Shown: positions 6,826-18,800, numbered from the stretch's first letter. The stretch: 28,488 bases of DNA from Deinococcota bacterium (GCA_039025155.1 JBCCOX010000001.1:1-28488); one strand, 5' to 3'. The notes: generated by a model not told the origin, from the sequence alone. Made by a program: numbers and translations.

Positions 6826-7271
6826 TCTATTGGGATACCTCCGCACTCATTAAGCTCTATGCGCCGGAACCCAACTCAGACATTTTCCTCAAACATATGA
6901 AAGACATCAAAACGCCGCCCGCTACGGCTGACACAACCAGTAGCGAGCTTCTCTGTGCGCTGTACCGCAAAGAAGCTTCCGGCGAACTCACTGAGGGCGG
7001 AGCTGAAGTACTCTTCAAGCGCTACCTCGACGACACCACAGCCGGGCGCATTGTCCTCATTCCCAACGGGCGGGATGTCACCGCGGCCGCCCAGCGGCTT
7101 ATCCATTACGCTTACAGCCAACCGCAACCCACTCAGATTCGCAGTGTGGATGTTGTCCATGTTGCCTCGGCACTTGTGACCAATGCCAAAGCGATGATGG
7201 CGACGGATGTACGGTTGCGGGAGGTGGCGGGGTTGATGGGGCTAAAGGTGTTGCCGGAAGGAAAAAACTAG
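6822..7271 (+). CDS. vapC: PIN-domain toxin
   Basis: IYWDTSALIKLY..E, ELLCALYRK, DVVHVASAL and ATDVRL carry the PIN acidic tetrad. Confidence 0.9.
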   Translation: MIYWDTSALIKLYAPEPNSDIFLKHMKDIKTPPATADTTSSELLCALYRKEASGELTEGGAEVLFKRYLDDTTAGRIVLIPNGRDVTAAAQRLIHYAYSQPQPTQIRSVDVVHVASALVTNAKAMMATDVRLREVAGLMGLKVLPEGKN

Positions 7272-7295
7272 CTCATGTTCAACTAAAACGCAAAA

Positions 7296-9059
7296 CTATG
7301 AACTATGGTTGTATATCTTCTTGAGAATCCAACTAGGACGAAGAGTTTTATTCGACGTTCTCACATTATTAAAATGGTTTTGCTTCACAGTACGCTTTGA
7401 ATAGCGCAGCTTTTCTTGAATAAAGGCTTTCAAGACATCCATAAGCTGGTCATGCTGAAAAAAGTGCTTTTTGTAGTCGCTTGCTCCTAAGAAACCTGTT
7501 TCTTGCTGTAACAAGCTGAGTCTCAACTTACGTCTCGGCAAATGGTTTTTACCTGCTAGGACGTCTTGAAACGCTTGCGGCAACCAATCTTCTTGTAGGA
7601 AACGCTGTCTGATAGTGTCTATAACTCTGTGTAGCTGTGTTTCATCATGGTGCTCAAATACCTGAAGCAACTCGTGAATGTCTTCGTTAAGAGCCTCAAA
7701 CTGAGCAAAGCCACCACCTACAAGCTGTAGAGGGGCTACTTCATCAAAGTAGCTGTGTCTGTTTTGAGCATGAACCCTAGCACTAATTAGCTTAATTAAC
7801 TCGGTGTAAGCACCCGCAAGCCACAAAACACTATAGGTATGCCATAGTTTGTGGTTTGTAAAAGATTTATACGCGCTTGCAACCAATTGATCGTTGCTTT
7901 TGAGAAAGGCTAGAGTTTTGTGCTCGAGCGCTAAAAAAGCTTGTCTAGAATAATTATTGTCCGTATGAGCTCGTAATAGTAAATGCGCTAGCAACGACAC
8001 GCTCGAGAGTGAGCTGTATAAGCCCTTGGAAAAAAGCGGGTCAACAAAACCTGCTGCATGTCCCAAAAGCGCCCAACGATCACCCACGATTTGCTTAGAG
8101 CTGTACTGTATACGTTCTGTACGCGTCCACGGGCGTACTGCTTTTGCCTTGTTGAATTGGGCTTGAATGCTTGGAAAGCGGGCAATAACATCAAAAAACT
8201 CGTCTTCAGCACATACATCTTCACGTTTGGGATAAATACGTGGGTCAAGCATTACACCTACACTGCAGAGCGGATTGGTGGACCTAGTATGGTTGTTAAA
8301 CGGAATGACCCATAACCAACCTCCTTCAAACACGTGGTGAAGGGTACCTTCGGTTACGTCATAGGGAATGCCGTAGTGTTGCTTGCTAGCAATTATTTCA
8401 TGGAAGTTCTCAACATCGACCATATGGGTGAAGATAGCCCTCGAGTGCGTCTGAAGATTAACTTCTCGAAGCTGAAACTTCTCAGCTAGCACCGACTTAA
8501 ACCCGCCTGCATCAACTACATAACTGGCATGATAAATAGCGTTTTGGGTGTAAATGCGAACGCTATCGTCTTCAATATCTACCGCTGTAACGGGTGTGTT
8601 TTGCAATATGGTTGCGCCGTAAGAAATTGCTGTGCTGACTAAAAAAGCATCACTATCTTGACGGTAAATGTGTAACTCGTGTCCGTGGGGTTCTTTTGGG
8701 ATAACGGCTTGTAAAACTTCGTTTGAAGTGGGTACGTTACCTTCTGTGTGGTGTAAAAAACTAAAATGCCGTTTCACGCCATGTGACGTACCAATGCGCG
8801 AAACATAGTTTTCAGAGCTGAAGTAGGCTAGCTCAGGTACGTCGTAAAGTTCTGCCATAGCCCGCATAACTTCACTGGTTTCTAAAATCATGCTCTCGCC
8901 AATAGCAAAACGAGGGTGGCTTTTAGCCTCAAAAACGAGTACGTTTAGACCCTGTCTCGCGAGGATGGCTGCGAGGCTCGAGCCAGCCATGCCTGAACCG
9001 ATAATGGCAACATCATACGAGTTGACGTGATGTTTTTGGGATTTTTGTAGTGGCTTCAT
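7296..9059 (-). CDS. PrnC-like flavin-dependent halogenase
   Basis: GSGMAG FAD motif, HPRFAIGES, GVKRHF (conserved Lys), GGWLWVIPFNNH (WxWxIP), FVDPLFSKG. Start moved to the ATG at 9059, which has a GGAGG RBS. Confidence 0.88.
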   Translation of the reverse strand: MKPLQKSQKHHVNSYDVAIIGSGMAGSSLAAILARQGLNVLVFEAKSHPRFAIGESMILETSEVMRAMAELYDVPELAYFSSENYVSRIGTSHGVKRHFSFLHHTEGNVPTSNEVLQAVIPKEPHGHELHIYRQDSDAFLVSTAISYGATILQNTPVTAVDIEDDSVRIYTQNAIYHASYVVDAGGFKSVLAEKFQLREVNLQTHSRAIFTHMVDVENFHEIIASKQHYGIPYDVTEGTLHHVFEGGWLWVIPFNNHTRSTNPLCSVGVMLDPRIYPKREDVCAEDEFFDVIARFPSIQAQFNKAKAVRPWTRTERIQYSSKQIVGDRWALLGHAAGFVDPLFSKGLYSSLSSVSLLAHLLLRAHTDNNYSRQAFLALEHKTLAFLKSNDQLVASAYKSFTNHKLWHTYSVLWLAGAYTELIKLISARVHAQNRHSYFDEVAPLQLVGGGFAQFEALNEDIHELLQVFEHHDETQLHRVIDTIRQRFLQEDWLPQAFQDVLAGKNHLPRRKLRLSLLQQETGFLGASDYKKHFFQHDQLMDVLKAFIQEKLRYSKRTVKQNHFNNVRTSNKTLRPSWILKKIYNHSS

Positions 9060-9190
9060 TACCGCCTCCAAAATAAAAGATTTAGTTTGTATTTTTACTT
9101 GCAATATTTATAGTGATGTAGGATCAATTCAAACTTTGTGCTAGACACTCACACGGAACCTATTAGCGCCTAAGACTCACACGCTCATTT

Positions 9191-10084
9191 TCAGAGTTCA
9201 GTGTTGAGAAAGGGCAGTAGATGCTCGAGTAATTTTTCAGGTTGCTCTTCGGGTAGCCAGTGACCACACCTAGCAAGGCTTGCTCCCCTGACATTTTTGG
9301 CGTACCGCTTGACTTGTTCAGGTAAAAACCCACCCATACTTGAATCACCATCCAACGCCAAAACAGGCATATCAAGTGGGGTTTGTGCATATTGCTGGGT
9401 ATGAACTACATCGTCAGCAAAACTACGAAAGTAGTCAAAGCTGGCTTTTAACCTATCCGCTTGGCTGTACGTGCGAGCATATTCAGCAAAATCGTCAGCT
9501 GTAAACGCTGCTTGTTGCAGTGTCAAACGACGTACAAAATACTCGAGGAAATATGCCTCTTTACCTTCGATAAGTGCTTCTGGTAGCTCAGACAAATTAA
9601 AAAAGCCAAAGTTCCAAGCACCTGGTCCATGAGGTGTGAGTGCAGGAAACGAAAAAAGAGATTCATCAGCTATGGGAGCTTCTAGCAGTACAAGATGACT
9701 TATCTCATCTGAATATGTGTAGGCATAAGCATGAGCAACCATAAGCCCAATATCGTGCCCTACCAACTTGATACGTGAGTGACTTTGGATTTCAAGGCTT
9801 TGCACCAGAGTTCTAATACGTGTGGCTGTTTGTGCTTTACTGTAGCCATCCTCAGGGATGTCAGAATCTCCTAAACCTGGTAGATCTATGGCAATCACCG
9901 TGTAATGTTGCGCTAATGTTGGCATGATTTTGCGCCACATGTACCAGCTTGAACCCCAACCATGGAGAAGCACCAGCGGCTCACCCTGCCCGCCAATAAC
10001 ATAATGAAGGTTGAGGTCCTCCACTTGCCCAATCTGACTTTGAAAACCTGGCAGAAGGTTAGATATTGATGTTGTCCTAGTCAT
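9191..10084 (-). CDS. Alpha/beta hydrolase, epoxide-hydrolase (Cif-like) family
   Basis: LLHGWG, DLPGLGDSD, GHDIG nucleophile, LEAPI, CGHWLPEEQP. AAGGAG RBS. Confidence 0.85.
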   Translation of the reverse strand: MTRTTSISNLLPGFQSQIGQVEDLNLHYVIGGQGEPLVLLHGWGSSWYMWRKIMPTLAQHYTVIAIDLPGLGDSDIPEDGYSKAQTATRIRTLVQSLEIQSHSRIKLVGHDIGLMVAHAYAYTYSDEISHLVLLEAPIADESLFSFPALTPHGPGAWNFGFFNLSELPEALIEGKEAYFLEYFVRRLTLQQAAFTADDFAEYARTYSQADRLKASFDYFRSFADDVVHTQQYAQTPLDMPVLALDGDSSMGGFLPEQVKRYAKNVRGASLARCGHWLPEEQPEKLLEHLLPFLNTEL

Positions 10085-17880: not shown

Positions 17881-17989
17881 AGCACCACATTCCCAAACTA
17901 ATATGGCTAGTTATGCCCTTGTAAACATCTTACACAGCATCATCAAAATGCTTTACGTATGACAAAGGCATCACCTATCAAACTCATAC

Positions 17990-18017
17990 GTGCGTGGAGG
18001 AATGTACCTCCACGCAC
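17990..18017. terminator. Perfect 11-bp hairpin between convergent genes
   Basis: GTGCGTGGAGG-AATGTA-CCTCCACGCAC. No U-tract. Confidence 0.45.
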
Positions 18018-18029
18018 AACGTTATCTAC

Positions 18030-18800
18030 TTAGCTGACAACGGCCTCGAGCTCACACTCCGTCTGCTGGTCAGCCATCTCGTCAAGGCGACCTGCTTCCA
18101 GCTTTGCGCGGTTGTAAACCCGCAAGGCTTCATCTTCAGTCAGTTGTGTAAGGCTCTTGATGTCACGTCCAGTCACCTGCTTGGCATAACCGTAGTGACT
18201 TTCCGTGGTTAACCCAAGCTTACTTAAAGCTCGGTGCATCTCCGCAGCACGCTCTCGTGACAAGGTGCCATCTGACGTTAATCCTGTCCCCCGTTGCCCT
18301 TTGTGGTAGTCCTTAGCAATCTTTGCGTTTGGTAAGACTTCGGTGGAGGGTGGTAACTTGGCAAACCTAAGCACAGGCTTACCTGTGATTTTCTTTTTCT
18401 CGTCATCGTAAGCAACCCATTGATCATCAGCATCGTAGAGGTAGCGACCAAGACCAAACTTGCTGCACGCACGCTTGAACGCTTGTGCTTCAGCAGTGGG
18501 ACCTTTTGCACCAAAGGTATCGTCTTTGACTTCACCTGTTGATGAGCGCATGACCGAGTAAATCGTCAAGCGGCAAATGAGTTTGTGCTCACCCCACGGT
18601 TGGAAACTGCACTCCCAGGCACCGGGAGCAACCTCATCAAGCCTTGCTTCGTATACGCGTGGGTCAGCGTAAGGCAGGGCTAGACATTTCTTCTTATCTC
18701 GTGTTTTGTTCCCAGCCCGCCATTCAATAGCGGACTCAGGGAAGGGTGCAGCTAGTGCTAGTAGTACTTCATTCCAATTGATGTTGTTGCAATCGTTCAT
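18030..18800 (-). CDS. Rad52/Rad22-family ssDNA annealing protein (Sak/DdrA-like)
   Basis: LAAPFP..IEWR, YADPR...RLDEV..GAW, CRLTI, QAFKRACSKFGLGRYLY. Confidence 0.88.
   Translation of the reverse strand: MNDCNNINWNEVLLALAAPFPESAIEWRAGNKTRDKKKCLALPYADPRVYEARLDEVAPGAWECSFQPWGEHKLICRLTIYSVMRSSTGEVKDDTFGAKGPTAEAQAFKRACSKFGLGRYLYDADDQWVAYDDEKKKITGKPVLRFAKLPPSTEVLPNAKIAKDYHKGQRGTGLTSDGTLSRERAAEMHRALSKLGLTTESHYGYAKQVTGRDIKSLTQLTEDEALRVYNRAKLEAGRLDEMADQQTECELEAVVS

Follow-up and report, generated by a model that had tools for sequence, protein, structure and literature searches.

In the SXT/R391 integrative and conjugative elements (ICEs), variable DNA occupies hotspots at fixed positions of the backbone, and the elements have Bet/Exo recombination genes (PMC2791158, PMC2786100). 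Orphan immunity genes in Vibrio cholerae's type VI secretion system (T6SS) clusters and orphan Rhs and contact-dependent inhibition (CDI) tips are displacement arrays, and homology-facilitated illegitimate recombination (HFIR) has been proposed for arrays retaining a displaced 3′ gene fragment (PMC5361080). Rad52-like phage recombinases (Red-beta, Erf, RecT and Sak) carry out relaxed homologous recombination; the assays in that report used regions 4-33% diverged, with longest identical stretches of 11-298 bp, and quantified recombination at 12% divergence (PMC3945230). DdrA, a Rad52 relative of Deinococcus, protects DNA ends and showed no annealing in vitro (PMC515370). Here we analyse a window of 28,488 nt, which is the entire contig C1 of a fragmented metagenome-assembled genome (MAG) of a Deinococcota bacterium (GCA_039025155.1, JBCCOX010000001.1:1-28488; 766 contigs, 81% complete) and whose sequence is held by runs that are marine metagenomes. 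In it, two blocks of accessory genes, cargo 1 and cargo 2, stand in tandem between a vapC toxin gene and a rad52-like gene, and are separated by truncated 3′ ends, or relics, of the same two genes. On present evidence the region is a scar of recombination, well documented, that reveals no new mechanism, and it presents the known hotspot and displacement patterns in a varied form.

The tandem reads phd-vapC, cargo 1, a rad52 3′ relic with its hairpin, 10 nt, a vapC 3′ relic, cargo 2 and an intact gene for a Rad52-fold protein, with both relics lying where a preliminary description of this DNA had placed them (genes were called by open reading frame (ORF) and Pfam scans, with PHROG added for some). 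On the left, a phd/yefM-type antitoxin gene (6574-6825, plus strand; Pfam PhdYeFM_antitox, E 1.4e-7) precedes the intact vapC (6822-7271, plus strand; Pfam PIN, E 1.7e-9) and overlaps its start at 6822-6825, the arrangement of a type II toxin-antitoxin pair in which VapC would be the PIN-domain toxin. Cargo 1 (7272-14519, genes at 7296-14449; Pfam) encodes an FAD halogenase-like oxidoreductase, two alpha/beta hydrolases, a tautomerase, DinB, a MerR-GyrI regulator, an SRPBCC/polyketide-cyclase-like protein and a carboxylesterase. It abuts a relic of the post-stop rad52 hairpin (14520-14561, minus strand, aligning with 17990-18029; fold -14.4 kcal/mol) and the rad52 relic proper (14562-14749, minus strand, codons ~196-256), which is 73.7% identical in nucleotides to the last 186 nt of the intact gene (own-genome tblastn E 3.7e-12) and whose homology runs on through the hairpin to ~14520. 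Only 10 nt of ambiguous origin (14750-14759) separate this relic, cut at rad52 nt ~586, from the vapC relic, cut at nt ~344 (14760-14855, plus strand, codons ~115-148), which is ~85-87% identical to 7165-7260 (own-genome tblastn E 5.9e-6, blastn E 2.7e-21). Cargo 2 follows (14856-17989, genes at 14968-17880, plus strand; Pfam), with an AraC regulator, an Abhydrolase_3-glyoxalase fusion and a YdeI/OmdA-like protein, and ends at the hairpin (17990-18029, minus strand, 11-nt arms and 6-nt loop; fold -25.5 kcal/mol) of the intact rad52-like gene (18030-18800, minus strand, 256 aa).

Differences between relic and intact copy fall on codon positions 1/2/3 in the numbers 10/11/28 for rad52 (chi-square 12.5, p ~0.002) and 3/3/9 for vapC (p ~0.09), and intact orthologues show a like bias, for instance the rad52 genes of the window and of genome G106 (30/26/100). 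Four alleles of the last 186 nt of rad52 (the intact copy and the relic of the window, G106:C154 and the Logan contig L181) are pairwise 73-81% identical. The relic has 19 private sites, 13 in common with G106 and L181 against the local gene and 4 exclusively in common with the local gene; at three residues it encodes G, S and L like the G106 allele (two of the three also in L181), against N, G and M in the local gene. The vapC relic, for its part, has derived states in common with a vapC stub found beside cargo 2 in genome G104. The third-position bias and the states common with foreign alleles indicate that the relics stem from a diverged, once-functional sibling allele, in agreement with the preliminary description, which had preferred such an origin to local decay; the single-base indels in each relic (two in rad52, one or two in vapC) indicate that some decay followed truncation. 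Judged by sequence, the relics are foreign sibling alleles and not local duplications. Duplication of the flanks in place followed by decay would account for the direct repeats that flank the blocks, but is hardly credible given a codon-position bias like that between functional alleles, the 13 against 4 shared sites and the residues matching the G106/L181 alleles.

The junction between the relics is also very improbably an artefact of assembly. The metagenome from which this MAG contig comes contains several sibling elements, and sibling contigs often break at the walls of the cargo region, so the contig might conceivably merge two strains with one cargo each. Against such a chimera, a single 17,090-nt Logan contig, built from run X1 by a second assembler, spans window positions 5898-22000 with zero differences and at a flat depth of 14.8, although X1 is probably the source sample, which makes this not an independent sample and leaves it short of long-read evidence. 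The relics are moreover unique sequences, 74-85% identical to the intact copies, with longest identical runs of 18 nt (vapC) and 8 nt (rad52). Such runs are shorter than the word sizes of metagenome assemblers, so a jump during assembly is unlikely, and a mis-join would be unable to produce a junction of a rad52 end with a vapC end. The preliminary description had named such a chimera as a refuting outcome; in the contig of the second assembler the junction was spanned at even depth.

Comparison with relatives indicates that the walls of a variable slot are formed by the 3′ ends of two convergent backbone genes, at the stop codon of vapC on one side and at the hairpin behind the rad52-like gene on the other. 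Of 128 family genomes, 42 carry the rad52-like gene (a tally that includes the unpublished genome G090). The closest copy (81% aa) is on G106:C154, a congener's contig that opens with the last 43 nt of vapC and continues with ~9 kb of metal-resistance cargo (ArsR, a P-type ATPase with an HMA domain, a DsbA-like protein, YdjM, ZIP, a transglutaminase-like protein, ArsR, CDF and a multicopy 219-aa ORF) up to the rad52 hairpin, and ends with rad52, a zinc-ribbon ORF and a 137-aa ORF. The same metal cargo, 98-99.7% identical, follows an intact phd-vapC in another congener, G104 (C226 and C141), where it starts at the vapC stop; this cargo contig stops ~150 nt short of the rad52 hairpin, and no rad52 was found there. 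In L181, which holds the fourth rad52 allele (73% aa), ArdC, the zinc-ribbon ORF, rad52 and its own hairpin are followed by unrelated DNA. L188, an ENA contig from a distant relative with backbone proteins 35-70% identical, has a nearly empty slot, in which rad52 lies ~560 nt from the leader ORF of the rep-like gene with one 94-aa ORF between them and no vapC. Backbone genes on the rad52 side are syntenic in G106:C154 and L181, and more loosely in L188.

On the vapC side, homology breaks off no more than a few nt from the stop codon in all cases (the window, G104:C226 and G106:C154), and three kinds of DNA follow the vapC stops. On the other side, the DNA beyond the hairpin of the rad52 alleles is of four kinds, as in a backbone with a hotspot: cargo 1 at the relic, cargo 2, the metal-resistance cargo and, in L181, unrelated DNA. 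All four alleles keep a hairpin after the stop (-14 to -25 kcal/mol), differing in sequence and conserved in pairing; the hairpins were folded singly, a four-way consensus alignment having put them out of register. They may be terminators, but the one at 17990-18029 has no U-tract, and a promoter/terminator scan of 14300-15100 found nothing. Homologues of rad52 at 40-50% identity in other genera belong to another conserved backbone; it has no variable slot, and no vapC lies within 17 kb of them. Since the slot is seen in siblings and not in these homologues, it is real but confined to this genus-level element family. The vapC/rad52 slot put forward in the preliminary description therefore finds support in G106, G104, L181 and L188, but not as a general arrangement, and relatives yielded the different single cargo it had led us to expect but no other tandem. 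Further searches for siblings returned the G106 contig only among genome contigs and nothing closer than 58% identity among metagenome contigs, and a plasmid collection held no rep homologue and only rad52 matches at <=39%. The region is a variable accessory slot in an undescribed, rep-bearing and probably integrative element family of a genus of marine Deinococcota.

Some features of the metal cargo deserve mention in their own right. The 219-aa ORF at its rad52-proximal edge (L036 8177-8836 in G106:C154) has no match in Pfam, NCBIfam or PHROG and is multicopy, at ~85% nt identity in G000 (C600, C63), G104 (C303) and G106 (C176) and at ~71% in G105 (C64); it may be a mobile gene. In G104, contig C141 (L122 1-4068) holds an alternative left end of this cargo, with ZIP, a multicopper oxidase and a DtxR-like repressor, which joins where C226 stops (L072 8891-8933) through a 44-nt inverted match and may reflect strain variation or an inversion.

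Which cargo arrived with which allele can be read from the occurrence of cargo 2 elsewhere. Run X3 holds the backbone and cargo 2 without cargo 1, and cargo 2 also occurs in G104 (contigs C89 and C592) at 89-95% nt identity. There its neighbours are chromosomal: a DPRP photolyase-related gene and a GGDEF-EAL gene, which are syntenic with G000:C318 and G105:C48, both lacking cargo 2. To its left lies a vapC stub of ~40-75 nt, the one with derived states in common with the window relic; to its right are ~290 nt that include a 138-nt multicopy repeat, and then a rad52 stub of 36 nt, which is 86% identical to the end of the window's intact gene and matches the relic worse. Because the G104 stubs match these, cargo 2 was originally paired with the vapC that is now a relic and with the 3′ end of the rad52 that is now intact, and the intact vapC and relic rad52 go with cargo 1. 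Homology between the left flank of the G104 copy and the rad52 relic of the window does not rise above shuffled controls, which makes this copy an independent truncation and not a derivative of the tandem. The preliminary description had slot contents travelling with short flanks, and this is borne out for cargo 2, which has short vapC and rad52 stubs in both the window and G104. No close copy of cargo 1 was found in the 128 family genomes.

The 138-nt repeat beside cargo 2 in G104 (L081 243-381 in G104:C592) is MITE-like (miniature inverted-repeat transposable element), with copies in G000 C196, C594, C34 and C734. G104:C206, which carries the neighbouring chromosomal gene, ends in the C-terminus of an IS3-type transposase (L192 2285-2539; rve_3, E 5e-9); insertion sequence (IS) activity may have shaped the G104 copy of cargo 2, the adjacency being one that crosses the contig gap between C206 and C592. 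A lone vapC 3′ fragment (L070 8295-8435, codons ~100-146, 88.7% nt identity to the window) lies on G106:C166 beside chromosomal genes (priA, luxS, a two-component system and an NYN-domain gene), and no rad52 relic was found next to it.

We consider it somewhat more probable than otherwise that the tandem is the scar of a single recombination event between two sibling elements with different cargos. One illegitimate joint would have fused rad52 to vapC at 14750-14759, and one homologous exchange would have occurred elsewhere, most likely in longer and better-conserved backbone sequence and not in the short flanks; both steps are required whatever the pathway. A crossover within the short arms is hard to credit even for relaxed annealases, given 74-85% identity and identical runs of 8-18 nt, so the homologous step was probably in the longer backbone homology. 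In the version that we prefer, a fragment derived from a sibling would have been captured with a homology anchor on one side and the illegitimate joint on the other, in an HFIR-like manner; Campbell-type insertion of a circularised fragment would give an equal end product. The incoming end would probably have had to lie within vapC, because selection should act against an entire toxin gene that lacks its antitoxin. Here we infer the order of events, the type of DNA substrate and the acting enzymes. Opportunity for exchange exists, in that sibling backbones are present together in one sample at similar depths. With repeated flanks too diverged for ready recombination, the stack looks frozen at present.

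Several points weigh against this reading. The joint at 14750-14759, inspected by eye only, shows no convincing microhomology, and a parental single-cargo element with cargo 1 was not found. All relatives are MAG or metagenome contigs, several of them breaking exactly at the slot walls. With only one tandem the pathway is not readable from replicates, and fragment capture, circle insertion and a cointegrate followed by deletion give an identical final structure. The reading also assumes natural competence or the co-residence of siblings in one cell.

The last of these routes is an alternative that we take seriously but think rather unlikely: two whole siblings would have formed a cointegrate or tandem, and a single internal deletion, beginning midway in the first copy's rad52 and ending midway in the second copy's vapC, would have removed one complete backbone. 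It yields the exact observed structure with one illegitimate joint, and for SXT/R391, related ICEs arranged in tandem have been documented, as have hybrids that derive from such arrays (PMC2786100). The co-occurrence of siblings in the sample also fits it, and rearrangement in the group is evident from the IS3-type transposase next to the chromosomal site in G104. A relative with the same backbone, moreover, carries a tyrosine integrase beside its AlpA-like gene, which makes tandem integration at the same site conceivable. Nevertheless, chance would have had to place both ends of the deletion close to the cargo edges, no more than 186 and 95 nt away, in a backbone that exceeds 10 kb by a good margin, and no tandem backbone was seen. 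In G104, as an independent instance, cargo 2 again has a short stub on either side (~40-75 nt and 36 nt), which a small fragment explains better than a series of lucky deletions. It is these two considerations, the chance placement of the ends and the recurrence of the stubs, that lead us to favour fragment capture.

The gene that forms the right wall raises the question of its own involvement. Its product has, from profiles and a predicted structure, the Rad52/Mgm101/Sak fold and would be of the single-stranded DNA-annealing type. It matches Pfam Rad52_Rad22 over 35 residues only (E 1.5e-5) and the PHROG 'Erf-like ssDNA annealing protein' (single-strand annealing protein, SSAP) over residues 12-167 (E 1.5e-22); a sequence search of solved structures gave no match. 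The AlphaFold model (pLDDT, predicted local distance difference test, 89.8) contains the N-terminal beta-beta-beta-alpha DNA-binding fold of Rad52, Mgm101 and Sak, and Foldseek, with a probability of 1.00 throughout, places at the top Mgm101 (E 1.7e-5 and 8.3e-5) and the 80-alpha Sak SSAP (E 2e-3). In a separate observation, the C-terminal helical part (residues ~196-256, the portion kept in the relic) resembles over ~60 residues the C-terminal domain of Red-beta (Foldseek probability 0.9), the part of Red-beta that binds lambda exonuclease. Pfam and PHROG searches of the neighbouring genes recognised no partner exonuclease beside rad52.

According to the preliminary description, such an annealase could drive dedicated, integrase-free cassette stacking, in which slot contents are captured through ~100-220 bp of diverged flank and accumulate in tandem. 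The fold of the flank gene product agrees with this, as do the action of Rad52-like phage recombinases on short diverged homologies (PMC3945230), the hybrids that SXT ICEs make with their own Bet/Exo (PMC2786100) and the presence of cargo 2 in two places with short stubs of both flanks. Yet we regard the proposal as improbable. There is one stack of two cargos, and neither the 128 family genomes nor the metagenome contigs reached contain another junction of a rad52 relic with a vapC relic, which does not bear out tandem accumulation as a rule. The rad52 arms, 74% identical, have no identical run above 8 nt; the joint between the relics is non-homologous, and annealing therefore cannot have made it. 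There is no exonuclease partner identified beside the gene, and Deinococcus DdrA protected ends without annealing in vitro (PMC515370). Nor is there a fixed site, since the flank lengths differ between the window and G104. As for 'integrase-free', the term is not warranted for the element as a whole, given the tyrosine integrase next to the AlpA-like gene in a relative with the same backbone. A looser variant, that slot contents move as short-flanked fragments whose capture into sibling slots and into chromosomes, as in G104, is promoted by the Rad52-fold protein, would make stacks intermediates of cargo exchange on an annealase-based route free of recombinase sites; we hold it to be equally doubtful. 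Nothing that we found supports the annealase idea, an annealase-driven step being purely conjectural, and nothing shows a dedicated stacking machine. If annealase-driven capture were true, it would extend the Bet/Exo idea of SXT to a new phylum and a new architecture.

Set beside the known systems, the locus resembles the SXT/R391 ICEs in having a conserved backbone with varied accessory DNA, its own (here predicted) single-strand annealing protein, and recombination between siblings that yields new cargo combinations. It differs in showing no conjugation genes in the window and no recognised exonuclease partner, and in belonging to another phylum with an unrelated backbone; here, in addition, the annealase gene itself is a slot wall and the stack retains truncated ends of both flanking genes. 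With the T6SS, Rhs and CDI arrays it has in common an incoming module placed beside the resident one, which is kept together with the 3′ fragment of a conserved gene, homology on one side and an illegitimate joint on the other. Cargo 1 thus keeps the rad52 relic and cargo 2 the vapC relic, and the joint of rad52 nt ~586 with vapC nt ~344 is non-homologous. Those arrays, however, keep a relic of one flanking gene only, consist of toxin-immunity modules and run up to many units, whereas here relics of both walls abut, the blocks are multi-gene metabolic or resistance sets with their own regulators, and there are two units and not the three or more of an array, with no further relic junctions in the 128 genomes. 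The likeness to the phage recombinases concerns the predicted fold superfamily of the flank protein and the concept of a mobile-element annealase shuffling diverged relatives, but the rad52 arms are 26% diverged here, with runs of <=8 nt. DdrA of Deinococcus radiodurans (PMC515370) is likewise a Rad52-family protein and of the same phylum, but is a chromosomal damage-response gene protecting 3′ ends while the window's gene sits in a mobile backbone, the two being compared by family only.

Integrons also accumulate acquired units in tandem at one locus, but the units here are multi-gene with their own regulators, and their boundaries are gene-end fragments of lengths that differ between instances. 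An integron cassette array was rejected as a candidate, since the window has no IntI integrase and a repeat search found only the gene-end relics and no attC-like repeat. The sequences following the vapC stops have no common motif. Rejected too was a Xer/dif-flanked module, which would carry conserved 28-bp sites of the XerC/XerD type at its ends: the post-rad52 hairpin has the 11-6-11 geometry, but its sequence differs in all four alleles and there is no partner site on the vapC side. A sequence that varies while the pairing is kept behaves as a structural hairpin and not as a protein-binding site.

The region is a clean natural example of the exchange of accessory blocks between sibling mobile elements in an uncultured marine lineage, with gene-end relics recording which cargo came with which allele. 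The element family to which it belongs is undescribed in Deinococcota and has two variable slots, one with metabolic and resistance cargo and one with defence genes. That the family is integrative is suggested by synteny in L188 (55 kb), where positions 2200-17100 hold a hyp206 homologue, ArdA, hyp137, the zinc-ribbon ORF, rad52, the leader ORF, a frameshifted rep, the AlpA-like gene and a tyrosine integrase; the integrase stands beside the AlpA-like homologue in L188 and in one JGI sibling. Pfam and PHROG scans of the 28.5-kb contig found no genes for conjugation or site-specific integration, and an integrase of the window's element may be encoded a short way past the left edge of the contig. 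A check for circularity found no overlap between the two ends of the contig, and no tRNA or Rfam family was found in the window.

The remaining genes of the window belong to the backbone or to the second slot. To the left of phd-vapC are the rep-like backbone gene (4755-5933, minus strand), a putative replication gene of 392 aa that has no Pfam family and is conserved at 64-90% aa in sibling contigs also bearing phd-vapC, and the 53-aa leader ORF that precedes it (5930-6091, minus strand). Further left are the STAND NTPase gene (820-4602; ORF and Pfam scans) and a gene for an AlpA/excisionase-like helix-turn-helix (HTH) protein (363-701; Pfam, PHROG). To the right of rad52 and co-oriented with it (18797-20395, minus strand; Pfam, PHROG) are the zinc-ribbon ORF, the 137-aa ORF and a gene for an ArdC-N/M78 anti-restriction-like protein. 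The second variable slot lies between the rep-like and the AlpA-like HTH genes (window 363-5933; L072 4339-5832; L191; two JGI contigs). It contains the STAND NTPase in the window and only ~785 nt in G104; in G106 and one JGI sibling it holds MazE-PIN_3, an M78/HTH regulator and a DncV-NTase/E2-ThiF/JAB set like that of CBASS (cyclic-oligonucleotide-based anti-phage signalling system), and in another JGI sibling DUF4238 and a tyrosine integrase. It looks like a hotspot for defence genes. Finally, window positions 21000-22000 show a strongly anomalous composition (AT skew ~+0.45, GC ~0.57) over a 237-aa ORF and its leader.

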